Shown here in pieces: positions 15,086-64,000 of a stretch of DNA of 64,000 nt. Position 1 is the stretch's first letter; each line of letters begins with the position of its first letter. The notes beneath the pieces were generated by a model. It searched no databases, was not told the DNA's origin, and saw only the letters and a program-made list of their open reading frames with translations. The DNA comes from Lytechinus pictus. Its lineage: Eukaryota. The position numbers and the translations under genes were made by a program. Location of the stretch: NCBI RefSeq assembly GCF_037042905.1, contig NC_087250.1, forward strand, positions 11,224,001-11,288,000, written 5' to 3'.

Positions 15086-15196
15086 CATTGGTGTCTCTCC
15101 TTTGGTGCTTTCCGGACAACAAATCTTCAGACTGCCAGAACTCCACTTAAAGAAGAATTGCTCTCCTTTGAGGGGAGCTATATAACCACGCGCGTC
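15086..15196 (-). CDS. Internal coding exon (111 nt, phase 0/0), UPA-like region
   Basis: Acceptor cacttttttttccccag| and donor ccaatg|gtaact. Translation DARGYIAPLKGEQFFFKWSSGSLKICCPESTKGETPM is in frame with the flanking exons. Confidence 0.82.
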
Positions 15197-28822: not shown

Positions 28823-28882
28823 ACCCCCCCCCCCCCTAGCACGTTGGTAAGACCATGTTAGAACGCCGATCTGGTGCCTTAA

Positions 28883-29116: not shown

Positions 29117-29358
29117 CTCTTCTTCGTGTTCATTTGCGTCTCTCACTTGAAGAAACAGAACGCTCATGCTATTCTTCAGTGGTCGCACGGGGACATACGG
29201 CGTACAAATAACACGCTTTCCAACGAACACCTCTTCGAGAATAGCCACGATCCAATATTCGGAGAAGTGATTGAAGGAGATATCTAGATCGCTATGTCTT
29301 ACAACACACCTTGGACTAACACCGATGGAAGAAGATATCGCAACAAACTGTTTTGAAG
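29117..29358 (-). CDS. Internal coding exon (242 nt, phase 1/0) with the HFS motif and start of a UPA-like region
   Basis: Acceptor tctccttttatctgacag| and donor gaagag|gtttgt. Translation (A)SKQFVAISSSIGVSPRCVVRHSDLDISFNHFSEYWIVAILEEVFVGKRVICTPYVPVRPLKNSMSVLFLQVRDANEHEEE lies within ORF 29063..29437 and is phase-compatible with the ZU5 exon. Confidence 0.87.
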
Positions 29359-30290: not shown

Positions 30291-30396
30291 GGGAAGGCGT
30301 CAATCAGGATAGGTTGTAGGGGGGCTTTGGGGACTAATAAATTGACAATGATTGACCTACTCTCAAATTTTTAATCCAAAATTGTTGCCAGTTTAA

Positions 30397-33062: not shown

Positions 33063-33633
33063 TAACAGATTTTATATCTGTCAAATAAAAACTGTCCCCA
33101 AATTAGAACATAGTGAGCCAGACTAGATGGGTGGTTCCCACCAATAAATGGGTGATATTTAGTCAGCCCTATTTAGTTTTTGTATTATATTTCATGCATT
33201 AACATAATACAGTTACAGGTAAGGGAAACTTCAGCCAAGCAAAATAAAACCAGTAGAATATTCCAATTACGATAATAATTACAACGTGATATCAAATTAA
33301 TGCGAATTTCGATTGGCAATACTCAATTCAGAATGTTGCTTTTGCTAGGCCCGTTTCCTTCCAGTTGTGGCAAGCCATTTTTGACATCCCTGACAAATAA
33401 AGGTTAGTGTTTGGTTATGCATTAATAACAGAATGACGATTTGGCGTCATCTTATACATAAGTTTTTCCACACAAATAAAATGAAAGTAAACAAATTATC
33501 CATCATAAAGTCTTTAAATTGATTCTCATTGATTCTCTATCATTATATCATATTCTTTACCCCTGAAATGTATTCTGTTTAATATTGGAACGAAATATAA
33601 CATTTGATGTTTATGTTAATAAGAAGTGTTTAC

Positions 33634-33969
33634 CACTTTGTCGATAATATGAAACGATTTCCACCTTCTCTGGCTTTGTGAACCTGCCACAGTGGGGCAT
33701 CGTTATTTCAACAGGGTGTCCAAAGACTGCATCAGAAGGCAACCTTATCTCCAAGCCGACTGTAATTATGGCTTCATTTTCTTTAATCAACAGCTCAGGT
33801 GGGACATCCGTTATTGCGTTGACAATAAAATCCTTTGCACTGTAAGCTTCATTTCTTGGAATTCGAACTTCAATACCATGATTCTCGAGTCGAATTGTGT
33901 CAGGATCATCATTTGATTCTTCGCTGATTTGTAGACTTTTTCGAGTGCTAAACGAACCAACATTTCTTC
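33634..33969 (-). CDS. Internal coding exon (336 nt, phase 1/1) encoding a ZU5 domain; first visible exon of a ZU5-HFS-UPA (UNC5CL/PIDD-like) gene
   Basis: Acceptor ...ctgttttaaaag| and donor agtg|gtaaac. Manual translation is stop-free: (G)RNVGSFSTRKSLQISEESNDDPDTIRLENHGIEVRIPRNEAYSAKDFIVNAITDVPPELLIKENEAIITVGLEIRLPSDAVFGHPVEITMPHCGRFTKPEKVEIVSYYRQS. It shows ZU5 hallmarks L-x3-GI-x-V-x-IP and F-x2-PV-x-I-x2-PHC. Confidence 0.88.
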
Positions 33970-35133
33970 CTTTTAAAACAGAATATTTAATACATTATTT
34001 AGAAGATATAACAAGAATAAAAAAAAGACATTGAGGAATATTTCCAAAAACGTTCTTCGAAACGTACTTGGAACTATTTGTATGGTTTTAGAGGTTGGTC
34101 TGATTTAAAATAAGTAATTTTGGAGAATTAACAAATAAAATTGTTTCATTGTCAGTACACTAAATATCAATGGATTTTTTTCGTACTTAAACTCCGGGTT
34201 AATCAAGGTGACATTACGTTGTATTGAACATATCAAATTTCATGAATATTTTTTTCCATTGATGTATTGAATAGACAGGAATCAAGCTTGATATTGACAT
34301 TCCTCTAAGGAATATTCCAAAGTACATTAAAACATTAATACACGAACGTGTATACTTAATGGCTGTCAAATGAGATAGGTAAAAAATAAACAAAATCAAG
34401 AATATAAACACATTAAAGAACATTTTCGAAAACGTACTTTGAGTCGTACTTAAAACTATTCGTATGGTGTTAGAGGTTGGTCTGATTTTAAATATGTAAT
34501 TTTAGAGAATCGAAAAATATAATTATTATATTGTCATGAGACTTTCAATCAATTAATTTTTGCTTGTACTTATACTGTAGTTAATCAAGGTGACTGTTCG
34601 TCGTGTTTAATATATCTGATATCATGAAGGAATCTTTTTTGTTGATATATTGAATATTCAGAAATCAAGCTTATAGACATTATTTAAAGAATAGTAAAGA
34701 ATATATTAAAATTTAAATGCATTAGGGTGTATATTCACATTATGTCAATTAAGATGAGGAAAAAGAGAAAGAGTTACAAGAATTTAAAGACAGTAAGGAA
34801 TATTTTCAAAACCGAACTTAGAAACGTACTTGGAACTATTCGTATTGTTCTAGAGGTTAGTTAGATTTGAAATAAGTAGATTTTGATGATTGAAAATTAG
34901 AATTATTTTATTATCATTCTATTAAATATCAATTGATCTTTGTTCGTACTTCTACCATGGTTAATCAAGGTGATTGAACGTTGTATTAAACGTATCTGAT
35001 TACATGAAGAAACTTTTTCCGCTGATATATTGAATACACAAAAATCAATCCTATTTAAATTTATCTAAAGAATAGTCGAAAATACATTAACATATAAATG
35101 CATTAAGGTGTATACTCACATGCTGTCATTTAA

Positions 35134-36395
35134 AGATAAATGCCAGTTGTGGTAACGATCTCAAAATGTTCTTTTTACAGAATCTAATATAATGACCACC
35201 CTAGTTTTTGTTAGTATGAATAACAAAAATTGTGCTAAAGGATTTTGAAAGATATTGCGTAATTGCTGAGAAATAAGCAAAATAAGCACGGATTTGGTCA
35301 CTTCCGTCGAGTCTTTATTGTAGCAATAGTAATACACAGTCCCACCTGTGCCTATCTGTGTTGGCGATCTTTAGTGTGATCGTTTTTCAGCTTAGATTTT
35401 ATGATTTCACCAAGTTCAGTTTATAATAATAATAATGGGTATTTAGAGGCGCTAAAAACAAAAAGTACCATAGCGCGTACAATGTAGGAATAACAATTTA
35501 ACATTTGCAATAATTACTACAATATTTAACATAAAAAGGGAAATTAATTATTGAGGAAAAAGGTATGTCTTAAGGGAAGATCTGAAGCCAAGAACACTGG
35601 AAGCATTTCTTATTGAAAGAGGGATAGTATTCCAAGTCTTGGCAGCTGCTACAGCAAACCGTTTTTCGGCAGAGGAGGGTTTTGACAAGGGAATGCAAAG
35701 TCTGCATGTGTCAGTGATTGAAAGAAGATTACGAGAGGGTGTGTATAATTTGATGGTATTATTAGGATATTCAGGTGCTAGATGATTTAGAGTTTTGTAT
35801 ACATATAAACAGACTTTAAACTAAATACGTTGGAATAGAGGTAGCCAGTGGAGTTCCTTAAGTAGGGGTGTAGTGTGAGTTCGGGATCCAAAGCCAAAAA
35901 TTAATCGAGCGGCACGATTCTGAATAACCTCAAGTTTTGTTCTATCTCTAGCTGACAAAACAATATATAAACTATTACAGTAATCTAACCGAGAAAGAAT
36001 AAGTGCTCGCACAGCATGGTGACATGTCTTAAGATCAATGAATCTACGAATCCTCCACAAATTGCTGAGATGATAATTACAATTACGGACAACCTGATTT
36101 ACTTGAGCAGACAGTGTGAACATGTTATCAATGCATACTCCAAGAACAGTAGTTTTAGTGGAGATGGGGATGCATTGACCATTAACATTAAGCTGAATAT
36201 GTGATATTGATTGCAGATGGCGGGCAGAAGAACAGAGAGCTATGAATTCAGTTTTGCTATTATTCAGCTGGAGATAATTAGATGATTTATGTAACTGTAC
36301 CAGATCTAGATCCACGATGATATAGTAATACTAATATTGGTTTTACATACTTTCTCACGAAATCGGTGTTTTACTGCAACTACTTTTATTTAGCT
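35134..36395. mobile_element. Kolobok-like non-autonomous DNA transposon inserted in the satellite
   Basis: It interrupts the monomer motif ctgtca(a/t)TTAAgatgagg. It is flanked by TTAA (35130-35133) and TTAC (36396-36399). Imperfect TIRs: agataaatgccagttgtggtaa / ttactgcaactacttttatttagct. Confidence 0.72.
35425..36285 (-). mobile_element. 5'-truncated L2/CR1-group LINE (ORF2 C-terminus with a premature stop, 3' UTR and (TTA)n tail) nested in the Kolobok-like element
   Basis: ORF 35821..36315 has LQLNNSKTE, LGVCID, LILSRLDYCNSL and LHWLP. The reading continues past the TAG (FKVCLYVYKTL...TWNTIP...LKTYLF). The 3' end has gcgct..agcgc followed by ATT repeats. Possible tttat duplication. Confidence 0.9.
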
Positions 36396-39300
36396 TTACG
36401 ATGAGGAAATTATAAAGAATTACAAGAACATAAAACGAGTAAGGAATAGTTTCGAAACGTACTTTGAACTATTCGTGGGGTTTTAGAGGTTGGTCTGATT
36501 TAAAATAATTAATTTTGGAGAATTAAAAAATAAAATTGTTTCATTGTCAGTACACTAAATATCAATAGAATTGTTTTCGTACTTATACTCCGGGTTAATC
36601 AAGGTGACATTACGTTGTATTGAACATATCAAATTTCATGAATATTTTTTTCCATTGATGAATTGAATAGACAGGATTCAAGCTTAATATTGAAATTCCT
36701 CTAAGGAATATTCCAAAGTACATTAAAACATTAATACATGAACGTGTATACTTACCACCTGTCAAATAAGATAATGAAAAAGAGAAAGAATAACAAGAAT
36801 AAAAAAAAAACATTGAGGAATATTTCCAAAAACGTACTTCGAAATGTACTTGGAACTATTTGTATGGTTTTACAGCTTGGTCTGATTTAAAACAATTAAT
36901 TTTGGAGAATTAAAAAATAAAATTGTTTCATTGTCAGTACACTAAATATCAATAGAATTTGTTTCGTACTTATACTTCAGGTAAAGCAAGGTGACATTAC
37001 GTTGTATTGAACATATCAAATTTCATGAAGATTTTTTTTTTCCGTTGATGTATTAAATAGACAGGATTCAAGCTTTATATTGACATTCCTCTAAGGAATA
37101 TTCCAAAGTACATTAAAACATTAATACATGAACGTGTATACTTACGTGCTGTCAAATAAGAATAAAATCAAGAATATAAACACATTAAAGAACATTTTCG
37201 AAAACGTACTTTGAGTCGTACTTAAAACTATTTCTATGGTGTTAGAGGTTGGCCTTATTTTAAATATGTCATTTTAAAAAAATCGAAAAATAGAATAATT
37301 ATATTGTCATGAGACTTTCTATCAATGAATTTTTGCTTGTACTTATACTGTAGTTAATCAAGGTGACTGTTCGTTCTGTTTAATATATCTGATATCATGA
37401 AGGAATCTTTTTTGTTGATATATTGAATATTCAGAAATCAAGCTTATAGACATTATTTAAAGAATAATAAAAAAATACATTAAAATTAAAATGCATTAGG
37501 GTGTATATTCACATTGTGTCAATTAAGATGAGGAAAAAGAGAAAGAATAAAAAAAAAAAAAAAACATTAAGGAATATTTACAAAAACGTACTTCGAAACG
37601 TACTTTAAACTATTTGTGTGGTTTTAGAGGTAGGTCTGATTTAAAATAAGGAATTTTGGAGAATTAAAAAATAAAATTGTTTTATTGTCAGTACACTAAA
37701 TATCAATAGAATTTTTTTCGTACTTATACTCTGGGTTATCCAAGGTGACATTACGTTGTATTGAACAAATCAAATTTCATTTTTAAAAAATCAATTGATT
37801 TATTGAATAGACAGGATTCAAGCTTTATATTAACATTCCTCTAAGGAATATTCCAAAGTAGATTAAAATATTAATACATGAACGTGTATACTTACGTGCT
37901 GTCATATAAGAATAAAGTCAAGAATATAAACACATTAAAGAACATTTTCGAAAACGTACTTTGAGTCGTACTTAAAACTATTCGTATGGTGTTAGAGGTT
38001 GGCCTGATTTTAAATATGTAATTTTAGAGAATCGAAAAATAGAATTATTATATTTTCATGAGACTTTCTATCAATAAATTTTTGCTTGTACTTATACTGT
38101 AGTTAATCAAGGTGACTGTTCGTTCTGTTTAATATATCTGATATCATGAAGGAATCTTTTTTGTTGATATATTGAATATTCAGAAATCAAGCTTATATAC
38201 ATTATTTAGAGAATAGTAAATAAATACATTAAAATTAAAATGCATTAGGGTATATATTTACATTCTGTCAATTAAGATGAGGAAAAAGAGAAAGAATTAC
38301 AAGAATTGAAAGACAGTAAGGAATATTTTCAAAACCGAACTTCGAAACGTACTTTACACTATTTGTGTGGTTTTAGAGGTAGGTCTGATTTAAAATAAAT
38401 AATTTTGGAGAATTAAAAAATAAAATTGTTTTATTGTCAGTACACAAAATATCAATATAATTTTTTCGTACTTATACTCTGGGTTAATCAAGGTGACATT
38501 ACGTTGTATTGAACAAATCAAATTTCATAAAGATTTTTTTCCATTGATGTATTAAATAGGCAGGAATTAAGCTTTATATTGACATACCTCTAAGGAATAT
38601 TCCAAAGTACATTAAAACATTAATACATGAACGTGTATACTTACGTGCTGTCAAATAAGAATAAAATCAAGAATATAAACACATTAAAGAACATTTTCGA
38701 AAACGTACTTTGGGTCGTATTTAAAACTATTCGTATGGTGTTAGAGGTTGGCCTGATTTTAAATATGTCATTTTAAAAAAAATCGAAAAATAGAATTATG
38801 ATATTGTCATGAGACTTTCTATCAATGAATTTTTGCTTGTACTTATACTGTAGTTAATCAAGGTGACTGTTCGTCGTGTTTAATATATCTAATATCATGA
38901 AGGAATCTTTTTTGTTGATATATTGAATATTCAGAAATCAAGCTTATAGACATTATTTAAAGAATAGTAAAAAAATACATTAAAATTAAAATGCATTAGG
39001 GTGTATATTCACATTGTGTCAATTAAGATGAGGAAAAAGAGAAATAATAAAAAAAATAAAAAAAAACATTAAGGAATACTTCCAAAAACGTACTTCGAAA
39101 CGTACTTTAAACTATTTGTGTGGTTTTAGAGGTAGGTCTGATTTAAAATAAGGAATTTTGGAGAATTAAAGAATAAAATTGTTTTATTGTCAGTACACTA
39201 AATATCAATAGAATTTTTTTCGTACTTATACTCTGGGTTATCCAAGGTGACATTACGTTGTATTGAACAAATCAAATTTCATTTTTAAAAAATCAATTGA

Positions 39301-42300
39301 TTTATTGAATAGACAGGATTCAAGCTTTATATTAACATTCCTCTAAGGAATATTCCAAAGTAGATTAAAATATTAATACATGAACGTGTATACTTACGTG
39401 CTGTCATATAAGAATAAAATCAAGAATATAAACACATTAAAGAACATTTTCGAAAACGTACTTTGAGTCGTACTTAAAACTATTCGTATGGTGTTAGAGG
39501 TTGGCCTGATTTTAAATATGTAATTTTAGAGAATCGAAAAATAGAATTATTATATTTTCATGAGACTTTCTATCAATAAATTTTTGCTTGTACTTATACT
39601 GTAGTTAATCAAGGTGACTGTTCGTTCTATTTAATATATCTGATATCATGAAGGAATCTTTTTTGTTGATATATTGAATATTCAGAAATCAAGCTTATAT
39701 ACATTATTTAGAGAATAGTAAAAAAATACATTAAAATTAAAATGCATTAGGGTGTATATTCACATTCTGTCAATTAAGATGAGGAAAAAGAGAAAGAATT
39801 ACAAGAATTTAAAGACAGTAAGGAATATTTTCAAAACCGAACTTAGAAACGTACTTGGAACTATTCGTATTGTTCTAGAGGTTGGTTAGATTTGAAATAA
39901 GTATTTTTTGGTGATTTAAATTATAATTATTTTATTATTATTCCATTAAATATCAATTGATTTTTGTTCGTACTTCTACCATGGTTAATCAAGGTGAGTG
40001 TACGTTGTATTGAACGTATCTGATTACATGAAGAAAATTTTTCCGCTGATATATTGAATACACAAAAATCAATCCTATTGACATTTCTCTAAAGAATAGT
40101 CCAAAATACATTAACATATAAATGCATTAAAGTGTATACTTACATGTACGTTGTGTTTAATGTATCTGATTACATGAAGAAACTTTTTTCCAATGATATA
40201 TTGAATAGACAGAAATAAAGCTTTTTGAAATTCCTTTAATGAAAATTCCAAACTACATTAAAATATCAATACATGAACGTGTATACTTACTGGCTGTCAA
40301 ATGAGATAACGAAAAGATAAACAATAACAAGAGTATAAACACATTAAAGACCATTTTCGAAAACGTACTTTGAAATGTACTTAAAACTATTCGTATGGTG
40401 TTAGAGGTTGGCCTGATTTTAAATATGTCATTTTAAAAAAATCGAAAAATAGAATTATGATATTGTCATGAGACTTTCTATCAATGAATTTTTGCTTGTA
40501 CTTATACTGTAGTTAATCAAGGTGACTGTTCGTCGTGTTTAATATATCTAATATCATGAAGGAATCTTTTTTGTTGATATATTGAATATTCAGAAATCAA
40601 GCTTATAGACATTATTTAAAGAATAGTAAAAAAATACATTAAAATTAAAATGCATTAGGGTGTATATTCACATTGTGTCAATTAAGATGAGGAAAAAGAG
40701 AAAGAATTACAAGAATTTAAAGACAGTAAGGAATATTTTCAAAACCGAACTTAGAAACGTACTTGGAACTATTCGTATTGTTCTAGAGGTTGGTTAGATT
40801 TCAAATAAGTATTTTTTGGTGATTTAAATTATAATTATTTTATTATTATTCCATTAAATATTTAATTGATTTTTGTTCGTACTTCTACCATGGTTAATCA
40901 AGGTGAGTGTACGTTGTATTGAACGTATCTGATTACATGAAGAACATTTTTCCGCTGATATATTGAATACACAAAAATCAATCCTATTGACATTTCTCTA
41001 AAGAATAGTCCAAAATACATTAACATATAAATGCATTAAAGTGTATACTCACATGTACGTTGTGTTTAATGTATCTGATTACATGAAGAAATTTTTTTCC
41101 AATGATATATTGAATAGACAGAAATAAAGCTTTTTGAAATTCCTTTAATGAATATTCCAAACTACATTAAAAGATTAATACATGGACGTGTATACTTACG
41201 GACTGTCAAACAAGATAACGAAAAGATAAACAATAACAAGAGTATAAACACATTAAAGACCATTTTCGAAAACGTACTTTGAAACGTACTTAAAACTATT
41301 CGTATGGTGTTAGAGGTTGGCCTGATTTTAAATATGTAATTTTAGAGAATCGAAAAATAGAATTATCATATTGTCATGAGACTTTCTATCAATAAATTTT
41401 TGCTTGTACTTATACTGTAGTTAATCAAGGTGACTGTTTGTTGTGTTTAATATATCTGATATCATGAAGGAATCTTTTTTGTTGATATATTGAATATTGA
41501 GAAATCAAGCTTATAGACATTATTTAAAGAATAGTAAAAAAAATACATTAAAATTAAAATGCATTAGGGTGTATTTCACATTGTGTCAATTAAGATGAGG
41601 AAAGAGAAAGAATAACAAAAATAAGAACAAACATTGAGGAATATTTCCAAAAACGTACTTCGAAACGTACTTTGAACTATTTGTGTGGTTTTAGAGGTAG
41701 GTCTGATTTAAAATAAGGAATTTAGGAGAATTAAAAAATAAAATTGTTTTATTGTCAGTACACTTAATATCAATATAATTTTTTCGTACTTATACTCTGG
41801 GTTAATCAAGGTGACATTACGTTATATTGAACAAATCAAATTTCATAAAGATTTTTCTTCCATTGATGTATTGAATAGACAGGATTCAAGCTTCATATTG
41901 ACATTCCTCTAAGGAATATTCCAAAGTACATTAAAATATTAATACATGAACGTGTATACTTACCATCTGTCAAATAAGATAACGAAAAGATAAACAATAA
42001 CAAGAGTATAAACACATTAAAGACCATTTTCGAAAACGTACTTTGAAACGTATTTAAAACTATTCGTATGGTGTTAGAGGTTGGCCTGATTTTAAATATG
42101 TAATTTTAGAGAATCGAAAAATAGAATCATTATATTGTCATGAGACTTTCTATCAATAAATTTTTGCTTGTACTTATACTGTAGTTAATCAAGGTGACTG
42201 TTTGTTGTGTTTAATATATCTGATATCATGAAGGAATCTTTTTTGTTGATATATTGAATATTGAGAAATCAAGCTTATAGACATTATTTAAAGAATAGTA

Positions 42301-45300
42301 AAAAAATACATTAAAATTAAAATGCATTAGGGTGTATACTCACATTCTGTCAATTAAGATGAGGAAACAGAGAAAGAGTTGCAAGAATTTAAAGACAGTA
42401 AGGAATATTTTCAAAACCGAACTTAGAAATGTACTTGGAACTATTTGAGTGGCTTTAGAGGTAGGTCTGATTTAAAAGAAGTAATTTTGGAGAATTAAAA
42501 AATAAAATTGTTTTATTGTCAGTACACTAAATATCAATATAATTTGTTTCGTACTTATACTCCGGGTTAATCAAGGTGACATTACGTTGTATCGAACAAA
42601 TCAAATTTCATGAAGATTTTTTTCCATTGAAATATTGAATAGACAGGATTCAAGCTTTATATTGACATTCCTCTAAGGAATATTCCAAAGTACATTAAAA
42701 TATTAATACATGAACGTGTATACTTACCCTCTGTCAAATAAGATAACGAAAAGATAAACAATAACAAGAGTATAAACACATTATAGACCATTTTCGAAAA
42801 CGTACTTTGAAACGTACTTAAAACTATTCGTATGGTGTTAGAGGTTGGCCTGATTTTAATTATGTAATTTTAGAGAATCGAAAAATAGAATTATTATATT
42901 GTCATGAGACTTTCTATCAATACATTTTTGCTTGTACTTATACTTTAGTTAATCAAGGTGACTGTTTGTTGTGTTTAATATATCTGATATCATGAAGGAA
43001 TCTTTTTTGTTGATATATTGAATATTGAGAAATCAAGCTTATAGACATTATTTAAAGAATAGTAAAAAAAAACATTAACATTAAAATGCATTAGGGTATA
43101 TTTCACATTGTGTCAATTAAGATGAGGAAAGAGAAAGAATAACAAAAATAAGAAAAAACATTGAGGAATATTTCCAAAAACGTACTTCGAAACGTACTTT
43201 GAACTATTTGTGTGGTTTTAGAGGTAGGTCTGATTTAAAATAAGGAATTTTGGAGAATTAGAAAATAAAATTGTTTTATTGTCAGTACACTAAATATCAA
43301 TATAATTTTTTCGTACTTATACTCTGGGTTAATCAAGGTGACATTACGTTATATAGAACAAATCAAATTTCATAAAGATTTTTCTTCCATTGATGTATTG
43401 AATAGACAGGATTCAAGCTTCATATTGACATTCCTCTAAGGAATATTCCAAAGTACATTAAAATATTAATACATGAACGTGTATACTTACCATCTGTCAA
43501 ATAAGATAACGAAAAGATAAACAATAACAAGAGTATAAACACATTAAAGACCATTTTCGAAAACGTACTTTGAAACGTATTTAAAACTATTCGTATGGTG
43601 TTAGAGGTTGGCCTGATTTTAAATATGTAATTTTAGAGAATCGAAAAATAGAATCATTATATTGTCATGAGACTTTCTATCAATAAATTTTTGCTTGTTC
43701 TTATACTGTAGTTAATCAAGGTGACTGTTTGTTGTGTTTAATATATCTGATATCATGAAGGAATCTTTTTTGTTGATATATTGAATATTGAGAAATCAAG
43801 CTTATAGACATTATTTAAAGAATAGTAAAAAAATGCATTAAAATTAAAATGCATTAGGGTGTATACTCACATTCTGTCAATTAAGATGAGGAAACAGAGA
43901 AAGAGTTGCAAGAATTTAAAGACAGTAAGGAATATTTTCAAAACCGAACTTAGAAATGTACTTGGAACTATTTGAGTGGCTTTAGAGGTAGGTCTGATTT
44001 AAAAGAAGTAATTTTGGAGAATTAAAAAATAAAATTGTTTTATTGTCAGTACACTAAATATCAATATAATTTGTTTCGTACTTATACTCCGGGTTAATCA
44101 AGGTGACATTACGTTGTATCGAACAAATCAAATTTCATGAAGATTTTTTTCCATTGAAATATTGAATAGACAGGATTCAAGCTTTATATTGACATTCCTC
44201 TAAGGAATATTCCAAAGTACATTAAAATATTAATACATGAACGTGTATACTTACCCTCTGTCAAATAAGATAACGAAAAGATAAACAATAACAAGAGTAT
44301 AAACACATTATAGACCATTTTCGAAAACGTACTTTGAAACGTACTTAAAACTATTCGTATGGTGTTAGCAGTTGGCCTGATTTTAAATATGTAATTTTAG
44401 AGAATCGAAAAATAGAATTATTATATTGTCATGAGACTTTCTATCAATAAATTTTTGCTTGTACTTATACTGTAGTTAATCAAGGTGACTGTTCGTTCTG
44501 TTTAATATATCTGATATCACGAAGGAATTTTTTTTGTTGATATATTTAATATTCAGAAATCAAGCTTATAGACATTTTTTAAAGAATAGTAAAAAAATGC
44601 ATTAAAATTAAAATGCATTAGGGTGTATATTCACATTCTGTCAACTAAGATGAGGAAAAAGAGAAATAATTACAAGAATTTAAAGACAGTAAGGAATATT
44701 TTTAAAAACCGAACTTAGAAACGTACTTGGAACTATTCGTATTGTTCTAGAGGTTGGTTAGATTTGAAATAAGTAGTTTTTGATGATTGAAATTAGAATT
44801 ATTTTATAATCATTCCATTAAATATCAATTGATTTTTGTTCGTACTTCTACCATGGTTTATCAAGGTGAGTGTACGTTGTATTGAACGTATCTGATTACA
44901 TGAAGAAACTTTTTCCGCTGATATATTGAATGCACAAAAATCAATCCTATTGAAATTTCTCTAAAGAATAGTCGAAAATACATTAACATATAAATGCATT
45001 AAAGTGTATACTCACATGTACGTTGTGTTTAATGTATCTGATTACATGAAGAATTTTTTTTCCAATGATATAATAAATAGACAGAAATAAAGCTTTTTGA
45101 AATTCATTTAAAGAATATTCCAAACTACATTAAAATGTAAATACATGAACGTGTATACTTACGGACTGTCAAATGAGATAACGAAAAGATAAACAATAAC
45201 AAGAGTATAAACACATTAAAGACCATTTTCGAAAACGTACTTTGAAACGTACTTAAAACTATTCGTATGGTGTTAGAGGTTGGCCTGATTTTAAATATGT

Positions 45301-51300: not shown

Positions 51301-54300
51301 ATACTTGGAACTATTTGTATAGTTTCAGAGGTTGGTCTGATTTGAAATAAGTAATTTTAGAAAATCAAAAATTATAATTGTTTTATTGTCAGTACACTAA
51401 ATATCAATGGATTTTTGGTTCGTACTTAAACTCCGGGTTAATCAAGGCGACATAACGTTGTATTGAACATATCTAATTTCATGAAGATTTTTTTTCCCAT
51501 TGGTATAATACACAGAAATCAAACTTATTGACTTTCTTCTAATTACAGTCAAAAGTACATTAAAATATGAATACATGAACGTGTATACTTACGGTCTGTC
51601 AATTAAGATGAGGAAAAAGAGAAAGAATAACAAGAATAAAAAAACAACATTGAGGAATATTTTGGAAAACGTAGTTCGAAACGTTCTTGGAACTATTTGT
51701 AAGGTTTCAGAGGTTGGTCTGATTAAAAAAAGGGTAATTTTGGAGAATCAAAAAATATAATTGTTTTAATGTCAGTACACTAAATATCAATGGATTTTTG
51801 TTCGTACTTAAACTCCGGGTTAATCAAGGCGACATTACGTTGTATTGAACATATCTAATTTAATGAAGAATTTTTTTTTCCATTGATATATTAAATAGAC
51901 AGAGTCAAGCTTTATATTGACATTAGTTTAAGGAATAGTCCAAACTACATTAAATAATAATTTCATTTGGTTGTATACTCACATACTGTCAATTAAGATG
52001 AGGAAAAAGGGAAAGAATAACAAGAATATAAAAATATTAAGGAATATTTTTGAAAAAGAACTTGGAAACATACTTGGAACTATTTGTATAGTTTCAGAGG
52101 TTGGTCTGATTTGAAATAAGTAATTTTAGAAAATCAAAAATTATAATTGTTTTATTGTCAGTACACTAAATATCAATGGATTTTGGTTCGTACTTAAACT
52201 CCGGGTTAATCAAGGCGACATAACGTTGTATTGAACATATCTAATTTCATGAAGATTTTTTTTCCCATTGGTATAATACACAGAAATCAAACTTATTGAC
52301 TTTCTTCTAATGACAGTCAAAAGTACATTAAAATATGAATACATGAACGTGTATACTTACGGTCTGTCAATTAAGATGAGGAAAAAGAGAAAGAATAACA
52401 AGAATAAAAAAACAACATTGAGGAATATTTTGGAAAACGTAGTTCGAAACGTTCTTGGAACTATTTGTAAGGTTTCAGAGGTTGGTCTGATTAAAAAAAG
52501 GGTAATTTTGGAGAATCAAAAAATATAATTGTTTTAATGTCAGTACACTAAATATCAATGGATTTTTGTTCGTACTTAAACTCCGGGTTAATCAAGGCGA
52601 CATTACGTTGTATTGAACAGATCTAATTTAATGAAGATTTTTTTTTCCATTAATATATTAAATAAACAGAAATAAAGCTTATTGACTTTTATGTAAAGAA
52701 TAGTCAAAAGTACATTAAAATACAAATACATGAAGGCGTATACTTACCGACTGTCAAATAAGATAAGGAAAAAGAGAAAGAATAACAAGAATATAAAAAT
52801 ATTAAGGAATATTCTCGAAAACGTACTTCGAAACGTACTTGGAACTATTTGTATGGTTTCAGAGGTTTGTCTGATTTGAAATAAGTAATTTTTAAAAATA
52901 AAAAAATATAATTGTTTTATTGTCAGTGCACTAAATATCAATGGATTTTTGTTCGTACTTATACTCTAGGTTAATCAAGGCGACCTTGTGTTGTATTGAA
53001 CATATCTAATTTCATGAAGATTTTTTTTCCCATTGGTATAATACACAGAAATCAAACTTATTGACTTTCCTCTAATGACAGTCAAAAGTACATTAAAATA
53101 TGAATACATGAACGTGTATACTTACGGTCTGTCAATTAAGATGAGGAAAAAGAGAAAGGATAACAAGAATAAAAAAACAACATTGAGGAATATTTTGGAA
53201 AACGTAGTTCGAAACGTTCTTGGAACTATTTGTAAGGTTTCAGAGGTTGGTCTGATTAAAAAAAGGGTAATTTTGGAGAATCAAAAAATATAATTGTTTT
53301 AATGTCAGTACACTAAATATCAATGGATTTTTGTTCGTACTTAAACTCCGGGTTAATCAAGGCGACATTACGTTGTATTGAACAGATCTAATTTAATGAA
53401 GATTTTTTTTTTCCATTGGTATATTAAATACACGGAAATCATGCTTATTGACTTTCCTCTAAAAAATAGTCAAAGAACATTAAAATATGAATACATAAAC
53501 GTGCATACTTACGCGCTGTCAAATAAGATAAGGAAAAGAAAAAGAATAACAAGAATATAAAAACATTAAGGAATATTCTCGAAAACGTACTTTGAAACGT
53601 ACTTGAAACTATTTGTATGGTTTCAGAGGTTAGTCTGATTTGAAATAAGTAATTTTAGAGAATCGAAAAATAGAATTATTTTATTGTCATGACACTAAAT
53701 ATCATTTTTTTTTTCATTTATACTGTGTTTAATCAAGGTGACTGTACGTTGTGTTTAATATATCTGATTTAATAAATTATTTTATTGTCATTACACTAGA
53801 TATAATTGGATTTTTTTCATCGTACTTATACTGTGGTTTGATCAAAGTAACCGTACGCTGTATTAAACATATTTGATTACATAAAGATTTTTTTTTCTAT
53901 TTATATATTAAATAGACAGAGTCAAGCTTTATATTGACATTCCTTTAAGGAATAGTCCAAACTACATTATATAATAATTTCATTTGGTTGTATACTCAGA
54001 TCCTGTCAATTAAGATGAGGAAAAAGGGAAAGAATAACAAGAATATAAAAATATTAAGGAATATTTTCGAAAAATAACTTGGAAACATACTTGGAACTAT
54101 TTGTATAGTTTTAGAGGTTGTTCTGATTTGAAATAAGTAATTTTAGAAATTCAAAAATTATAATTGTTTTATTGTCAGTACACTAAATATCAATGGATTT
54201 TGGTTCGTACTTAAACTCCGGGTTAATCAAGGCGACATAACGTTGTATTGAACATATCTAATTTCATGAAGATTTTTTTTCCCATTGGTATAATACACAG

Positions 54301-57059
54301 AAATCAAACTTATTGACTTTCTTCTAATTACAGTCAAAAGTACATTAAAATATGAATACATGAACGTGTATACTTACGGTCTGTCAATTAAGATGAGGAA
54401 AAAGAGAAAGAATAACAAGAATAAAAAAACAACATTGAGGAATATTTTGGAAAACGTAGTTCGAAACGTTCTTGGAACTATTTGTAAGGTTTCAGAGGTT
54501 GGTCTGATTAAAAAAAGGGTAATTTTGGAGAATCAAAAAATATAATTGTTTTAATGTCAGTACACTAAATATCAATGGATTTTTGTTCGTACTTAAACTC
54601 CGGGTTAATCAAGGCGACATTACGTTGTATTGAACAGATCTAATTTAATGAAGATTTTTTTTTCCATTGATATATTAAATAGACAGAGTCAAGCTTTATA
54701 TTGACATTCCTTTAAGGAATAGTCCAAACTACATTAAATAATAATTTCATTTGGTTGTATACTCAGATCCTGTCAATTAAGATGAGGAAAAAGGGAAAGA
54801 ATAACAAGAATATAAAAATATTAAGGAATATTTTCGAAAAAGAACTTGGAAACATACTTGGAACTATTTGTATAGTTTCAGAGGTTGGTCTGATTTGAAA
54901 TAAGTAATTTTAGAAAACCAAAAATTATAATTGTTTTATTGTCAGTACACTAAATATCAATGGATTTTGGTTCGTACTTAAACTCCGGGTTAATCAAGGC
55001 GACATAACGTTGTATTGAACATATCTAATTTCATGAAGATTTTTTTTCCCATTGGTATAATACACAGAAATCAAACTTATTGACTTTCTTCTAATGACAG
55101 TCAAAAGTACATTAAAATATGAATACATAAACGTGCATACTTACGCGCTGTCAAATAAGATAAGGAAAAGAAAAAGAATAACAAGAATATAAAAACATTA
55201 AGGAATATTCTCGAAAACGTACTTTGAAACGTACTTGAAACTATTTGTATGGTTTCAGAGGTTAGTCTGATTTGAAATAAGTAATTTTAGAGAATCGAAA
55301 AAATGGAATTATTTTATTGTCATGGCACTAAATATCATTTTTTTTCATTTATACTGTGTTTAATCAAGGTGATTGTACGTTGTGTTTAATATATCTGATT
55401 TAATAAATTATTTTATTGTCATTACACTAGATATAATTGGATTTTTTTTCATCGTACTTATACTGTGGTTTGATCAAAGTAACCGTACGCTGTATTAAAC
55501 ATATTTGATTACATAAAGATTTTTTTTTCTATTTATATATTAAATAGACAGAGTCAAGCTTTATATTGACATTCCTTTAAGGAATAGTCCAAACTACATT
55601 AAATAATAATTTCATTTGGTTGTATACTCACATCCTGTCAATTAAGATGAGGAAAAAGTGAAAGAATAACAAGAATATAAAAATATTAAGGAATATTCTC
55701 AAAAACGTACTTTGAAACGTACTTGAAACTATTTGTATGGTTTCAGAGGTTAGTCTGATTTGAAATAAGTAATTTTAGAGAATTAAAAGATAGAATTGTT
55801 TTATTGTCAGTACATATCAATGGATTTTTGTTCGTACTTATACTCCAGGTTATTCAAGGTGACCTTACGTTGTATTGAACATACCTAATTTCATGAATAT
55901 TTTTTTTCCCATTGGTATAATACACAGAAATCAAACTTATTGACTTTCTTCTAATGACAGTCAAAAATACATTAAAATATGAATACATGAACGTGTATAC
56001 TTACCGACTGTCAATTAAGATGAGGAAAAAGAGAAAGAATAACAAAAATAAAAAAACAACATTGAGGAATATTTTGGAAAACGTAGTTCGAAACGTTCTT
56101 GGAACTATTTGTAAGGTTTCAGAGGTTGGTCTGATTAAAAAAAGGGTAATTTTGGAGAATCAAAAAATGTAATTGTTTTAATGTCAGTACACTAAATATC
56201 AATGGATTTTTGTTCGTACTTATACTCTAGGTTAATCAAAGGCGACCTTGTGTTGTATTGTACATATCTAATTTCATTAAGATTCTTTTTTCCATTGGTA
56301 TATTAGATACACGGAAATCAAGCTTATTGACTTTCCTCTAAAAAATAGTCAAAAGAACATTAAAATATGAATACATAAACGTGCATACTTACGCGCTGTC
56401 AAATAAGATAAGGAAAAGAAAAAGAATAACAAGAATATAAAAACATTAAGGAATATTCTCAAAAACGTACTTTGAAACGTACTTGAAACTATTTGTATGG
56501 TTTCAGAGGTTAGTCTGATTTGAAATAAGTAATTTTAGAGAATCAAAAGATATAATTGTTTTAATGTCAGTACACTAAATATCAATGGATTTTTGTTTGT
56601 ACTTAAACTCCAGGTTAATCAAGGCGACATTACGTTGTATTGAACATATCTAATTTAATGAAGATTTTTTTTTCCATTGATATATTAAATAAACAGAAAT
56701 AAAGCTTATTGACTTTTATGTAAAGAATAGTCAAAAGTACATTAAAATACAAATACATGAAGGCGTATACTCACCGGCTGTCAAATAAGATAAGGAAAAA
56801 GAGAAAGAATAACAAGAATATAAAAATATTAAGGAATATTCTCGAAAACGTACTTCGAAACGTACTTGGAACTATTTGTATGGTTTCAGAGGTTTGTCTG
56901 ATTTGAAATAAGTAATTTTTAGAAATAAAAAAATATAATTGTTTTATTGTCAGTGCACTAAATATCAATGGATTTTTGTTCGTACTTAAACTCCGGGTTA
57001 ATCAAGGCGACATTACGTTGTATTGAACAGATCTAATTTAATGAAGAATTTTTTTTCCA

Positions 57060-60000
57060 TTGATATATTAAATAAACAGAAATAAAGCTTATTGACTTTT
57101 ATGTAAAGAATAGTCAAAAGTACATTAAAATACAAATACATGAAGGCGTATACTCACCGGCTGTCAAATAAGATAAGGAAAAAGAGAAAGAATAACAAGA
57201 ATATAAAAATATTAAGGAATATTTTCGAAAAAGAACTTGGAAACATACTTGGAACTATTTGTATAGTTTCAGAGGTTGGTCTGATTTGAAATAAGTAATT
57301 TTAGAAAATCAAAAATTATAATTGTTTTATTGTCAGTACACTAAATATCAATGGATTTTGGTTCGTACTTAAACTCCGGGTTAATCAAGGCGACATAACG
57401 TTGTATTGAACATATCTAATTTCATGAAGATTTTTTTTCCCATTGGTATAATACACAGAAATCAAACTTATTGACTTTCTTCTAATGACAGTCAAAAGTA
57501 CATTAAAATATGAATACATAAACGTGCATACTTACGCGCTGTCAAATAAGATAAGGAAAAGAAAAAGAATAACAAGAATATAAAAACATTAAGGAATATT
57601 CTCAAAAACGTACTTTGAAACGTACTTGAAACTATTTGTATGGTTTCAGAGGTTAGTCTGATTTGAAATAAGTAATTTTTAAAAATAAAAAAATATAATT
57701 GTTTTATTGTCAGTGCACTAAATATCAATGGATTTTTGTTCGTACTTATACTCTAGGTTAATCAAGGCGACCTTGTGTTGTATTGTACATATCTAATTTC
57801 ATTAAGATTTTTTTTCCATTGGTATATTAAATACACGGAAATCAAGCTTATTGACTTTCCTCTAAAAAATAGTCAAAAGAACATTAAAATATGAATACAT
57901 AAACGTGCATACTTACGCGCTGTCAAATAAGATAAGGAAAAGAAAAAGAATAACAAGAATATACAAACATTAAGGAATATTCTCAAAAACGTACTTTGAA
58001 ACGTACTTGAAACTATTTGTATGGTTTCAGAGGTTAGTCTGATTTGAAAAAAGTAATTTTAGAGAATCAAAAGATAGAATTTTTTTATTGTCAGTACATA
58101 TCAATGGATTTTTGTTCGTACTTAAACTCCGGGTTAATCAAGGCGACATTACGTTGTATTGAACATATCTAATTTCATGAAGATTTTTTTTCCCATTGGT
58201 ATAATACACAGAAATCAAACTTTTTGACTTTCTTCTAATGACAGTCAAAAGTACATTAAAATATGAATACATGAACGTGTATACTTACGGTCTGTCAATT
58301 AAGATGAGGAAAAAGAGAAAGAATAACAAGAATAAAAAAACAACATTGAGGAATATTTTGGAAAACGTAGTTCGAAACGTTCTTGGAACTATTTGTAAGG
58401 TTTCAGAGGTTGGTCTGATTAAAAAAAGGGTAATTTGGGAGAATCAAAAAATATAATTGTTTTAATGTCAGTACACTAAATATCAATGGATTTTTGTTCG
58501 TACTTAAACTCCGGGTTAATCAAGGCGACATTACGTTGTATTGAACAGATTTAATTTAATGAATAATTTTTTTTCCATTGATATATAAAATAAACAGAAA
58601 TAAAGCTTATTGACTTTTATGTAAAGAATAGTCAAAAGTACATTAAAATACAAATACATGAAGGCGTATACTTACCGACTGTCAAATAAGATAAGGAAAA
58701 AGAGAAAGAATAACAAGAATATAAAAATATTAAGGAATATTCTCGAAAACGTACTTCGAAACGTACTTGGAACTATTTGTATGGTTTCAGAGGTTTGTCT
58801 GATTTGAAATAAGTAATTTTTAAAAATAAAAAAATATAATTGTTTTATTGTCAGTGCACTAAATATCAATGGATTTTTGTTCGTACTTATACTCTAGGTT
58901 AATCAAGGCGACCTTGTGTTGTATTGTACATATCTAATTTCATGAAGATTTTTTTTCCCATTGGTATAATACACAGAAATCAAACTTATTGACTTTCTTC
59001 TAATGACAGTCAAAAGTACATTAAAATATAAATACATGAACGTGTATACTTACGGTCTGTCAATTAAGATGAGGAAAAAGAGAAAGAATAACAAGAATAA
59101 AAAAACAACATTGAGGAATATTTTGGAAAACGTAGTTCGAAACGTTCTTGGAACTATTTGTAAGGTTTCAGAGGTTGGTCTGATTAAAAAAAGGGTAATT
59201 TTGGAGAATCAAAAAATATAATTGTTTTAATGTCAGTACACTAAATATCAATGGATTTTTGTTCGTACTTAAACTCCGGGTTAATCAAGGCGACATTACG
59301 TTGTATTGAACAGATCTAATTTAATGAAGAATTTTTTTTCCATTGATATATTAAATAGACAGAGTCAAGCTTTATATTGACATTCCTTTAAGGAATAGTC
59401 CAAACTACATTAAATAATAATTTCATTTGGTTGTATACTCACATCCTGTCAATTAAGATGAGGAAAAAGGGAAAGAATAACAAGAATATAAAAATATTAA
59501 GGAATATTTTCGAAAAAGAACTTGGAAACATACTTGGAACTATTTGTATAGTTTCAGAGGTTGGTCTGATTTGAAATAAGTAATTTTAGAAAATCAAAAA
59601 TTATAATTGTTTTATTGTCAGTACACTAAATATCAATGGATTTTGGTTCGTACTTAAACTCCGGGTTAATCAAGGCGACATAACGTTGTATTGAACATAT
59701 CTAATTTCATGAAGATTTTTTTTCCCATTGGTATAATACACAGAAATCAAACTTATTGACTTTCTTCTAATGACAGTCAAAAGTACATTAAAATATGAAT
59801 ACATGAACGTGTATACTTACCGACTGTCAATTAAGATGAGGAAAAAGAGAAAGAATAACAAAAATAAAAAAAAAACATTGAGGAAAATTTTGAAAACGTA
59901 GTTCGAAACGTTCTTGGAACTATTTGTAAGGTTTCAGAGGTTGGTCTGATTAAAAAAAGGGTAATTTTGGAGAATCAAAAAATATAATTGTTTTAATGTC

Positions 60001-63000
60001 AGTACACTAAATATCAATGGATTTTTGTTTGTACTTAAACTCCGGGTTAATCAAGGCGACATTACGTTGTATTGAACATATCTAATTTAATGAAGATTTT
60101 TTTTTCCATTGATATATTAAATAAACAGAAATAAAGCTTATTGACTTTTATGTAAAGAATAGTCAAAAGTACATTAAAATACAAATACATGAAGGCGTAT
60201 ACTCACCGGCTGTCAAATAAGATAAGGAAAAAGAGAAAGAATAACAAGAATATAAAAATATTAAGGAATATTTTCGAAAAAGAACTTGGAAACATACTTG
60301 GAACTATTTGTATAGTTTCAGAGGTTGGTCTGATTTGAAATAAGTAATTTTAGAAAATCAAAAATTATAATTGTTTTATTGTCAGTACACTAAATATCAA
60401 TGGATTTTGGTTCGTACTTAAACTCCGGGTTAATCAAGGCGACATAACGTTGTATTGAACATATCTAATTTCATGAAGATTTTTTTTCCCATTGGTATAA
60501 TACACAGAAATCAAACTTATTGACTTTCTTCTAATGACAGTCAAAAGTACATTAAAATATGAATACATAAACGTGCATACTTACGCGCTGTCAAATAAGA
60601 TAAGGAAAAGAAAAAGAATAACAAGAATATAAAAACATTAAGGAATATTCTCAAAAACGTACTTTGAAACGTACTTGAAACTATTTGTATGGTTTCAGAG
60701 GTTAGTCTGATTTGAAATAAGTAATTTTTAAAAATAAAAAAATATAATTGTTTTATTGTCAGTGCACTAAATATCAATGGATTTTTGTTCGTACTTATAC
60801 TCTAGGTTAATCAAGGCGACCTTGTGTTGTATTGTACATATCTAATTTCATTAAGATTTTTTTTCCATTGGTATATTAAATACACGGAAATCAAGCTTAT
60901 TGACTTTCCTCTAAAAAATAGTCAAAAGAACATTAAAATATGAATACATAAACGTGCATACTTACGCGCTGTCAAATAAGATAAGGAAAAGAAAAAGAAT
61001 AACAAGAATATACAAACATTAAGGAATATTCTCAAAAACGTACTTTGAAACGTACTTGAAACTATTTGTATGGTTTCAGAGGTTAGTCTGATTTGAAAAA
61101 AGTAATTTTAGAGAATCAAAAGATAGAATTTTTTTATTGTCAGTACATATCAATGGATTTTTGTTCGTACTTAAACTCCGGGTTAATCAAGGCGACATTA
61201 CGTTGTATTGAACATATCTAATTTCATGAAGATTTTTTTTCCCATTGGTATAATACACAGAAATCAAACTTTTTGACTTTCTTCTAATGACAGTCAAAAG
61301 TACATTAAAATATGAATACATGAACGTGTATACTTACGGTCTGTCAATTAAGATGAGGAAAAAGAGAAAGAATAACAAGAATAAAAAAACAACATTGAGG
61401 AATATTTTGGAAAACGTAGTTCGAAACGTTCTTGGAACTATTTGTAAGGTTTCAGAGGTTGGTCTGATTAAAAAAAGGGTAATTTGGGAGAATCAAAAAA
61501 TATAATTGTTTTAATGTCAGTACACTAAATATCAATGGATTTTTGTTCGTACTTAAACTCCGGGTTAATCAAGGCGACATTACGTTGTATTGAACAGATT
61601 TAATTTAATGAATAATTTTTTTTCCATTGATATATAAAATAAACAGAAATAAAGCTTATTGACTTTTATGTAAAGAATAGTCAAAAGTACATTAAAATAC
61701 AAATACATGAAGGCGTATACTTACCGACTGTCAAATAAGATAAGGAAAAAGAGAAAGAATAACAAGAATATAAAAATATTAAGGAATATTCTCGAAAACG
61801 TACTTCGAAACGTACTTGGAACTATTTGTATGGTTTCAGAGGTTTGTCTGATTTGAAATAAGTAATTTTTAAAAATAAAAAAATATAATTGTTTTATTGT
61901 CAGTGCACTAAATATCAATGGATTTTTGTTCGTACTTATACTCTAGGTTAATCAAGGCGACCTTGTGTTGTATTGTACATATCTAATTTCATGAAGATTT
62001 TTTTTCCCATTGGTATAATACACAGAAATCAAACTTATTGACTTTCTTCTAATGACAGTCAAAAGTACATTAAAATATAAATACATGAACGTGTATACTT
62101 ACGGTCTGTCAATTAAGATGAGGAAAAAGAGAAAGAATAACAAGAATAAAAAAACAACATTGAGGAATATTTTGGAAAACGTAGTTCGAAACGTTCTTGG
62201 AACTATTTGTAAGGTTTCAGAGGTTGGTCTGATTAAAAAAAGGGTAATTTTGGAGAATCAAAAAATATAATTGTTTTAATGTCAGTACACTAAATATCAA
62301 TGGATTTTTGTTCGTACTTAAACTCCGGGTTAATCAAGGCGACATTACGTTGTATTGAACAGATCTAATTTAATGAAGAATTTTTTTTCCATTGATATAT
62401 TAAATAGACAGAGTCAAGCTTTATATTGACATTCCTTTAAGGAATAGTCCAAACTACATTAAATAATAATTTCATTTGGTTGTATACTCACATCCTGTCA
62501 ATTAAGATGAGGAAAAAGGGAAAGAATAACAAGAATATAAAAATATTAAGGAATATTTTCGAAAAAGAACTTGGAAACATACTTGGAACTATTTGTATAG
62601 TTTCAGAGGTTGGTCTGATTTGAAATAAGTAATTTTAGAAAATCAAAAATTATAATTGTTTTATTGTCAGTACACTAAATATCAATGGATTTTGGTTCGT
62701 ACTTAAACTCCGGGTTAATCAAGGCGACATAACGTTGTATTGAACATATCTAATTTCATGAAGATTTTTTTTCCCATTGGTATAATACACAGAAATCAAA
62801 CTTATTGACTTTCTTCTAATGACAGTCAAAAGTACATTAAAATATGAATACATGAACGTGTATACTTACCGACTGTCAATTAAGATGAGGAAAAAGAGAA
62901 AGAATAACAAAAATAAAAAAAAAAACATTGAGGAAAATTTTGAAAACGTAGTTCGAAACGTTCTTGGAACTATTTGTAAGGTTTCAGAGGTTGGTCTGAT

Positions 63001-63320
63001 TAAAAAAAGGGTAATTTTGGAGAATCAAAAAATATAATTGTTTTAATGTCAGTACACTAAATATCAATGGATTTTTGTTTGTACTTAAACTCCGGGTTAA
63101 TCAAGGCGACATTACGTTGTATTGAACATATCTAATTTAATGAAGATTTTTTTTTCCATTGATATATTAAATAAACAGAAATAAAGCTTATTGACTTTTA
63201 TGTAAAGAATAGTCAAAAGTACATTAAAATACAAATACATGAAGGCGTATACTCACCGGCTGTCAAATAAGATAAGGAAAAAGAGAAAGAATAACAAGAA
63301 TATAAAAATATTAAGGAATA
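57060..63320. repeat. Near-identical tandem duplication of an 8-monomer higher-order unit (3049 bp)
   Basis: Four ORF pairs with identical translations are offset by exactly 3049 (57492/60541, 58238/61287, 58672/61721, 59003/62052) and share private variants. Boundaries are approximate. Confidence 0.92.
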
Positions 63321-64000
63321 TTCTCGAAAACGTACTTCGAAACGTACTTGGAACTATTTGTATGGTTTCAGAGGTTTGTCTGATTTGAAATAAGTAATTT
63401 TTAAAAATAAAAAAATATAATTGTTTTATTGTCAGTGCACTAAATATCAATGGATTTTTGTTCGTACTTATACTCTAGGTTAATCAAGGCGACCTTGTGT
63501 TGTATTGTACATATCTAATTTCATTAAGATTTTTTTTTCCATTGGTATATTAAATACACGGAAATCAAGCTTATTGACTTTCCTCTAAAAAATAGTCAAA
63601 AGAACATTAAAATATGAATACATAAACGTGCATACTTACGCGCTGTCAAATAAGATAAGGAAAAGAAAAAGAATAACAAGAATATACAAACATTAAGGAA
63701 TATTCTCAAAAACGTACTTTGAAACGTACTTGAAACTATTTGTATGGTTTCAGAGGTTAGTCTGATTTGAAAAAAGTAATTTTAGAGAATCAAAAGATAG
63801 AATTTTTTTATTGTCAGTACATATCAATGGATTTTTGTTCGTACTTAAACTCCGGGTTAATCAAGGCGACATTACGTTGTATTGAACATATCTAATTTCA
63901 TGAAGATTTTTTTTCCCATTGGTATAATACACAGAAATCAAACTTATTGACTTTCTTCTAATGACAGTCAAAAGTACATTAAAATATGAATACATGAACG

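Follow-up and report, generated by a model that had tools for sequence, protein, structure and literature searches.

What becomes of a coding exon when a satellite array begins a few tens of base pairs from its splice acceptor? The question is raised by a stretch of 64,000 nucleotides from the sea urchin Lytechinus pictus (the window; positions 11224001-11288000 of contig NC_087250.1, here C6). On its minus strand lies an exon for a ZU5 domain and, directly upstream of it, a satellite with 383-bp monomers; both are drawn into one annotated gene, LOC129263377. We examined the window together with an extra 100 kb of the contig, 164 kb in all, from an assembly of 811.7 Mb. Numbering past 64000 continues that of the window, and window position + 11224000 gives the position on C6. 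The initial annotation had proposed either a satellite-filled intron or a gene decapitated by the array. Features of both are present. The acceptor aligns with that of a paralogue, an RNA-like contig ends at it and a public protein model joins the exon to one further upstream, as expected of an intron. The ATG is lost and the first exon of the model is borrowed, as expected of a decapitated gene. Neither proposal is the whole story. The monomers themselves resemble introns, and we give about even credence to a reading in which the array is spliced out stepwise, leaving three nucleotides per unit.

A satellite array upstream of a ZU5 exon

The ZU5 exon (exon A; 33634..33969, minus strand) is in phase 1 at both ends. 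The minus-strand open frame around it (33611..33994) matches Pfam ZU5 (PF00791) with an E-value of 1.8e-4 and 22.1 bits, the gathering cut-off being 21; paralogues reach 33.9 and 38.8 bits. Its residues are 100% identical to part of the 358-aa NCBI protein 'uncharacterized protein LOC129263377 [Lytechinus pictus]', here P0001. On the minus strand the exon starts as ...TCTGTTTTAAAAG/GAAGAAATG, where the slash marks the exon border, with 33969 as its first base. The AG of the 3' splice site lies at 33970..33971 (minus strand), as placed by the bases themselves, by the end of a contig from read run X2 and by the alignment to L024, a paralogue on the same contig. The donor is G/GTAAAC after 33634. 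Exon A has no in-frame ATG ahead of ITMPHCG, in the middle of the domain, which together with the AG confirms the earlier claim of an exon that opens at a phase-1 acceptor and lacks a start codon. A TAA stands at 33997-33995, upstream of the acceptor.

L024 has its inferred acceptor at the same place, just before its ATG (...ttattttggcag/AT ATG), and for this reason the acceptor at 33971/33970 appears to be ancestral. The paralogue reads ...ATCTATAAATATTCTTATTTTGGCAG/AT ATG GCA GAA ATC..., the exon A locus ...ATGTATTAAATATTCTGTTTTAAAAG/GAAGAAAT..., and a 5-nt gap in exon A deletes the ATG that L024 carries 2 nt past the acceptor. Homology to L024 extends about 24 nt into the intron, reaching 33995, 8 bp short of the satellite edge. 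The 31 nt between satellite edge and AG (33972..34002, minus strand; holding the TAA) are probably a remnant of the ancestral 5' intron. From this comparison we infer three things: an intron usually stands ahead of the ZU5 exon in this family, the satellite occupies that intron, and this gene copy is unable to start translation by itself.

The satellite fills 34003..64000 of the window (Tandem Repeats Finder; BLAST with one monomer). It runs on to 79652, which gives an array of 45,650 bp. Of its 120 segments, 100 are close to full length. The initial annotation, which had put at least 30 kb of satellite from about 34005, some 35 bp from the acceptor, was therefore nearly exact: in the BLAST search the edge is at 34003, 32 bp from the AG. 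This edge falls midway through the pyrimidine tract of a monomer, so the further suggestion that the array supplies pyrimidines to the acceptor is anatomically right. Between 34024 and 64000 the periods assigned by Tandem Repeats Finder are 380-385, apart from short nested rows of 109 and 147; one row, over 55402-64000, has 22.6 copies at 85%. The BLAST search gives 134 segments, all in one orientation. Monomers at the proximal edge are 74-84% identical to a core monomer; the core is homogenised, at 95-99%, and best-matching monomers recur about every 3,050 bp, or 8 monomers. Rfam at gathering scores gives no match over 33000-64000. Members of the satellite family, among the matches listed, lie on contig C6 only, in tandem clusters at 10.71-11.36 Mb and 14.10 Mb; these genome searches score the best candidates only, and solitary copies may have been missed.

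One monomer is broken by the 3' fragment of a long interspersed nuclear element (LINE) reverse transcriptase (35140..36396, minus strand; translation and segment list), with monomer positions 219-226 duplicated on both sides. The insert recurs in shortened form near the far array end, where it breaks the array at 73725-75102 and 77361-77758, with the same order of partial monomers. With insert and order common to both, the array ends look like old duplicates flanking a younger, homogenised core. At 74719-74852, inside an array insert, lies a simple repeat of 85% G+C (poly-Arg, poly-Gly or poly-Ala) adjoining a tandem repeat of about 180 nt; no other GC-rich 60-nt window was found inside the array.

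Arrays are prone to assembly error, and the exon-satellite junction might be a misjoin, a suspicion fed by P0001, which reads 24 nt upstream of the acceptor seen in RNA. A contig of read run X1 (33634-34177) nevertheless crosses the junction with 0 differences at a depth of 8, with the reservation that X1 and the assembly may derive from one and the same animal. Monomers at the edge are old, and their divergence (74-84% identity) makes them unique; the 164 kb contain no N, and paralogue homology reaches to 8 bp from the satellite. We consider a misjoin very improbable, close to negligible.

Intron-like monomers and a proposed chain of three-base exons

Read on the minus strand, each satellite unit begins GTAAGTAT or GTGAGTAT (GTAAGT or GTGAGT). 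Its end is formed by some 45 nt rich in T and C and, after them, TCTTAATTGACAG (TTGACAG). Adjacent units are set apart by a 3-nt spacer, giving the motif polypyrimidine-TGACAG/NNN/GT[A/G]AGT. In the form ACAG/NNN/GT[A/G]AGT it occurs at 85 minus-strand sites between 79215 and 33900, and neither on the plus strand of the array nor in 76 kb of flanking non-satellite DNA. The motif is a near-consensus splice-site pair, and each monomer has the anatomy of a short intron.

The spacer is also among the most variable parts of the unit. Mean column entropy, in an alignment of the 100 near-full monomers without the 20 partial segments, is 0.41 bit. The spacer columns (174-176) reach 1.90, 1.73 and 1.68 bits and are the 1st, 4th and 5th most variable of 383; immediately upstream of them is the 13-mer that varies least in the monomer. 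At least 16 different triplets occupy the spacer, for example at 36756-36758 and 60207-60209 in the window, and their mix of transversions goes beyond what CpG decay alone explains.

P0001 runs through this array. Its residues 1-66 are encoded by exon 1 (107788-107590), ending CTGA/GTAAGT, and 73.8 kb lie between its ATG and exon A. A 21-nt exon (79238-79218) within a satellite monomer, bordered by AG and GT, supplies residues 67-73 (RRKFTRS) and the first base of the codon that follows. The exons upstream of the ZU5 exon are thus those of the model, exon 1 beyond the array and the 21-nt exon in it. An ancestral 5' exon of the family type was not located: when the 10 kb ahead of each of four paralogues was compared with the 164 kb, the only matches were to dispersed repeats.

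The next 81 residues of P0001 are GC-rich, and the 164 kb hold no contiguous coding DNA for them. Three back-translated patterns of 10-11 residues have 0 matches in the whole assembly, in which a control pattern from exon 1 is found. A protein search with the 81-residue block alone, among proteins of 196-627 aa, returned only P0001 itself, and a search for short proteins spanning the front of exon A gave no candidate. When exons were instead sought in order, each preceded by AG and followed by GT, the 81 residues were spelled exactly, by 81 three-base exons, one per monomer, from 78496 to 36756. Fifty-five of the 81 fall in the window, over 36756..63642 (minus strand; first 63642-63640, last 36758-36756; ...TTGACAG/NNN/GT[A/G]AGTAT). 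The initial annotation had found no credible exon up to the window end. This stands for ordinary exons; P0001, in contrast, needs these 55. That the 83 unmatched residues of P0001 represent bases absent from the assembly was considered and rejected, because the three-base chain reproduces them.

Full enumeration yields 1,296 chains that differ at 7 residues only, and one of them uses the monomer motif alone. This motif-only chain takes 81 of the 85 sites and skips those at 77343, 43873, 42346 and 35122, none of which would add a stop to it. In the chain found first, acceptors are TGACAG in 75 of 83 cases and donors GTAAGT or GTGAGT in 76 of 83. Its weak secondary sites (AAG/CAC/GTTTC, AAG/TAC/GTTTC) were considered as traces of a transcript from another haplotype, an idea dropped because the enumeration provides a path through main motifs only. 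Controls on the plus strand place 2 of 82 residues, the reversed peptide 1 of 82 and six shuffled peptides 1-5 of 82. The chain is 71% G+C versus about 27% for the array, and an 8-residue repeat in P0001, VGYLDPPP, fits the 8-monomer spacing of best-matching monomers. Joining exon 1, the 21-nt exon, the 81 three-base exons, exon A from 33993 and the next coding exon (exon B; 29117..29358, minus strand; tblastn with P0001 and paralogues, and X2 contig record 9, which ends at 29358) rebuilds 355 of the 358 residues of P0001, with the last three (SHT) unmapped. The frame is open in every combination tested, be it no chain, the P0001 chain or all 84 sites above 36 kb.

We therefore arrive at the following model, to which the even credence stated above applies. 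The array would lie in a 5' intron, apparently ancestral to the family, of the ZU5-family gene LOC129263377. The gene, its own start codon lost, is read in P0001 from the borrowed exon 1, 73.8 kb upstream. Transcription would begin beyond the array, and RNA polymerase II (Pol II) would read through it. The spliceosome would then remove the array monomer by monomer, with 3 nt retained each time. In the mRNA, the 21-nt satellite-derived exon and the ZU5 exon would be separated by as many as 84 GC-rich codons, all in frame. In line with this, the array appears to lie within a transcription unit, flanked by exons that the public model joins. Because the monomers carry consensus splice signals, removal as about 84 small introns is likelier than removal as one giant intron. 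Real mRNAs would, in this model, contain the three-base chain.

RNA-like reads and competing explanations

Whether the chain occurs in RNA can be approached through read evidence covering 28500-36400, in which the RNA nature of run X2 is a guess and the type of X1 is unspecified. X2 behaves like RNA: three bins containing most of exons A and B have depths of 17.6, 11.6 and 15.6, as compared with 0 in the unique-intron bins 29556-30347, 31140-31667, 32196-32459 and 33252-33515. Its contigs end at 29358, the acceptor of exon B, and at 33970, that of exon A. The acceptor at 33970/33971 is thus used in one RNA-like run. The X2 contig of record 11 comprises 272 letters. The first 126 lie on 33845-33970, and 146 further letters are not placed there. 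The contig still matches at 33970, a shared G, which implies that the exon upstream ends in G; the 21-nt exon and the last triplet (GTG) do so, and exon 1 ends in A.

X2 contigs overlap by exactly 30 letters where they meet, suggesting that they break at repeated 30-mers. If all 84 sites above 36 kb are used together with the acceptor at 33969, the nearest repeated 30-mer lies 147 nt upstream, predicting 146 unplaced letters, the number observed. The P0001 chain predicts 140. Exon 1 and the 21-nt exon alone predict about 190 if the copy of exon 1 on contig C7 (see below) is co-expressed, and more otherwise. The match to the parameter-free model of all sites is indirect, and it is the only positive sign of the chain in RNA.

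These lengths also bear on the simpler idea that the array is transcribed and then removed as one intron of 45.2 kb (79217 to 33970), or in a few pieces, the three-base chain existing in the annotation only. Three-nucleotide exons are hard for the spliceosome to define, and a transcript without them would be intact: exon 1, the 21-nt exon, exon A and exon B form an open frame of 798 nt with 0 stops, and the 21-nt exon ends in G, as the contig still matching at 33970 requires. Such splicing would have to ignore 84 sense-oriented consensus splice-site pairs, and it would be expected to leave about 190 or more unplaced letters where 146 are observed. We judge it improbable.

X1 has a depth of 3-9 over exons and introns and breaks at both exon borders, as expected for a mixture of spliced and unspliced molecules. 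Its coverage continues past exon A into satellite sequence, where it is lost by about 34.84 kb. On unique proximal monomers lie an X1 contig at 34149-34601 and an X2 contig at 34392-34584, both without strand information. The X2 contig fits its monomer with 0 differences, though the unique intron nearby is at zero depth; it suggests that some array RNA is present, with X2 itself only guessed to be RNA. The total-RNA runs X7 and X8, about 6% of each of which was read, have 0 depth on these proximal monomers. Both contain many read pairs that join 35387-35421 to 36286 with 26-32 other letters between. These pairs are from expressed relatives of the LINE fragment with another internal structure and are not transcripts of this locus.

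Doubt about the start of the model comes from exon 1. It corresponds to the first part of an intronless unit present in many copies, one of which, intact-looking and on contig C7 (L030), runs on into a DUF3504 domain. At the exon 1 locus the DUF3504 part (E 3.7e-8) follows after 11 kb and the tail after another 5 kb, with transposons between. The unit being split by transposons in this way, exon 1 is borrowed from a decayed copy of the DUF3504 family. The broken copy lies in three pieces, L013:3546-3953 (minus strand), L012:2088-2492 (minus strand) and an open reading frame at 90969-91454 (minus strand); besides the intact-looking copy on C7, the unit has dozens of weaker copies elsewhere.

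The locus might accordingly be a headless paralogue fragment, which has lost promoter, 5' exon and ATG, while weak local transcripts splice into the old acceptor and the upstream part of the gene model is an artefact. Transcripts would then start close by, from the proximal satellite, from the LINE fragment or from some other element. This would account for the ATG lost relative to L024, for an annotated exon 1 taken from a decayed, transposon-riddled DUF3504-family copy, and for the non-AG acceptor of P0001 and its omission of two intact downstream exons. It also agrees with X1 coverage that leads from exon A into the satellite and fades, with the lack of expression in the two total-RNA runs, and with the 10 kb upstream of each of four paralogues, which has nothing but dispersed repeats in common with the sequence past the array. 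Against a headless fragment speak four exons without stops, the X2 contig spliced at the acceptor to at least 146 letters, and the 21-nt exon in the satellite, whose right phase and AG and GT borders are unlike chance. As in a decapitated copy, a start codon is lost and no family-type 5' exon was found beyond the array; unlike in a pseudogene, no stop interrupts the aligned parts of the four exons. We regard a headless fragment as a possibility of some substance, on the whole unlikely.

Several observations weigh against the stepwise splicing that we favour. P0001 enters exon A at 33993, preceded by AT and not AG, and thereby reads 33970-33993, AG included, as coding (IKYSVLK), a stretch that X2 treats as intron. 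We know of no process that accounts for this entry; a hypothetical allele with G in place of T at 33994 would have an AG there, shortly after the pyrimidine tract. The model also leaves out two intact downstream exons and skips four good motif sites without visible reason. Owing to this entry, the omitted exons and the skipped sites, at least part of P0001 was likely computed rather than observed, and the recurring splice-like motif may simply have trapped a gene predictor. To our knowledge three-nucleotide exons are very rare, and 84 consecutive ones are without precedent. The agreement at 146 letters depends on two assumptions, breakage of contigs at repeated 30-mers and the reference haplotype in X2, and these letters are known by length only and may lie elsewhere on the stretch (54 joints are unlisted). 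The X1 contig that crosses the exon-satellite junction is unspliced at the acceptor. Both total-RNA runs have zero depth on exons and unique introns, which decides nothing either way, and none of the runs containing the exon stretch is on record as RNA.

A further point of this kind concerns the satellite family at large. Its other arrays share the frame CAG-NNN-GTAAGTATA with other triplets (ACG, AAA, AAC, TGC and others). The strict motif occurs 11 times (L035), once (L036) and 0 times (L038) in 10-kb samples, as compared with 85 times in the main array of 45.65 kb; the variant in L038 is TTGGCAG-AAC-GTAAGTATA. Since the other arrays carry this frame, the motif is a trait of the satellite family, best kept in the array inside this gene, and not an adaptation to the gene. 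The comparison rests on few independent cases, arrays being homogenised as wholes.

The ZU5 gene and its parallels

Downstream of exons A and B, two further exons are homologous to paralogues and lie outside P0001. One is at 15092..15184 (minus strand; tblastn with P0003, 58% identity, no stop) and the other at 12580..12732 (minus strand; tblastn with P0003, P0006 and P0008, 45-47% identity, no stop). There is no stop in the aligned parts of any of the four exons, which agrees with the earlier statement that the exons carry no disabling changes. By its Pfam match exon A resembles ZU5-UPA-death-domain proteins of the UNC5, PIDD and ankyrin type. In contrast to these, we found no death domain in the window, Pfam detects none in either P0003 or P0006, and the copy here lacks its own ATG. 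Paralogous ZU5 exons number dozens and are clustered on other contigs (C8:33.57-33.89 Mb, C16:24.77-25.73 Mb, C19:1.16-1.27 Mb; 49-63% protein identity). The family is tandemly expanded, and the copy in the window is a solitary member. An intron of the ZU5 gene also holds an inverted pair of one repeat with near-identical open frames, at 16491-16787 (plus strand) and 20838-21101 (minus strand).

Satellite arrays in genes are usually treated as inert filler for Pol II to cross, and the satellite in the gigantic introns of the fly Y chromosome is a simple repeat. In the present gene, the filler is built like some 85 introns in a row. The initial annotation had likened the locus to the Drosophila Y-linked fertility genes kl-3 and kl-5, which are described as having gigantic introns that contain satellite DNA (Fingerhut et al. 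2019, PMC6508621). The likeness is a loose one. It holds in so far as a tandem satellite lies between coding exons of one annotated unit, to be crossed by Pol II. It does not extend to size, the array here measuring 45.65 kb and the intron 45.2 kb as against megabases in flies, nor to the repeat, which is a complex 383-bp monomer on a 28.5-Mb sea-urchin contig. Moreover, these monomers carry consensus 5' and 3' splice signals, so that stepwise removal would be expected.

Stepwise removal invites comparison with recursive splicing at ratchet points, which leaves zero-nucleotide exons (outlined in Duff et al., 10.1101/006163, and in the account of Sibley et al. 2015 given in PMC13196383). Here as there, a polypyrimidine tract and AG are closely followed by a strong 5' splice site, making stepwise removal possible. 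In contrast to ratchet points, the two sites are not juxtaposed; they lie 3 nt apart in 85 of 85 cases, and a codon would be left at each step. They also recur every 383 bp by virtue of the satellite, rather than being scattered through a unique intron. A second parallel are introners, transposons that bring their own splice sites and for which flanking repeats of 3-9 bp are mentioned (Gozashti et al. 2022, PMC9860276). Like these, the satellite is a repeated unit with splice signals at both ends and a short variable junction sequence. It differs in that its copies, among the matches listed, form tandem arrays on contig C6 and are not dispersed through genes; inspection by eye only found no terminal inverted repeats of the unit. 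A literature search found no paper on satellite DNA of Lytechinus pictus and, among the titles listed, none on satellite DNA together with microexons and splice sites, or on satellite monomers used as exons or introns.

What follows from this locus depends on whether the chain is real. If it is an artefact, the public record holds 81 residues that a predictor obtained by threading through a satellite, and other records may share this origin. If it is true, this would be the first case known to us of a satellite spliced out unit by unit, with far more tandem three-nucleotide exons than in any gene known to us, and repeat copy number would write directly into protein. A bolder version would have the three-base exons not only real but variably included. 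Here, the satellite would be a generator of variable linkers of up to 84 residues ahead of an immune-type ZU5 protein, and the diversity of the spacers would be kept by selection. We consider this decidedly improbable. If it were true, array length and higher-order repeats would set the number and order of codons, and the satellite array would be coding DNA in disguise.

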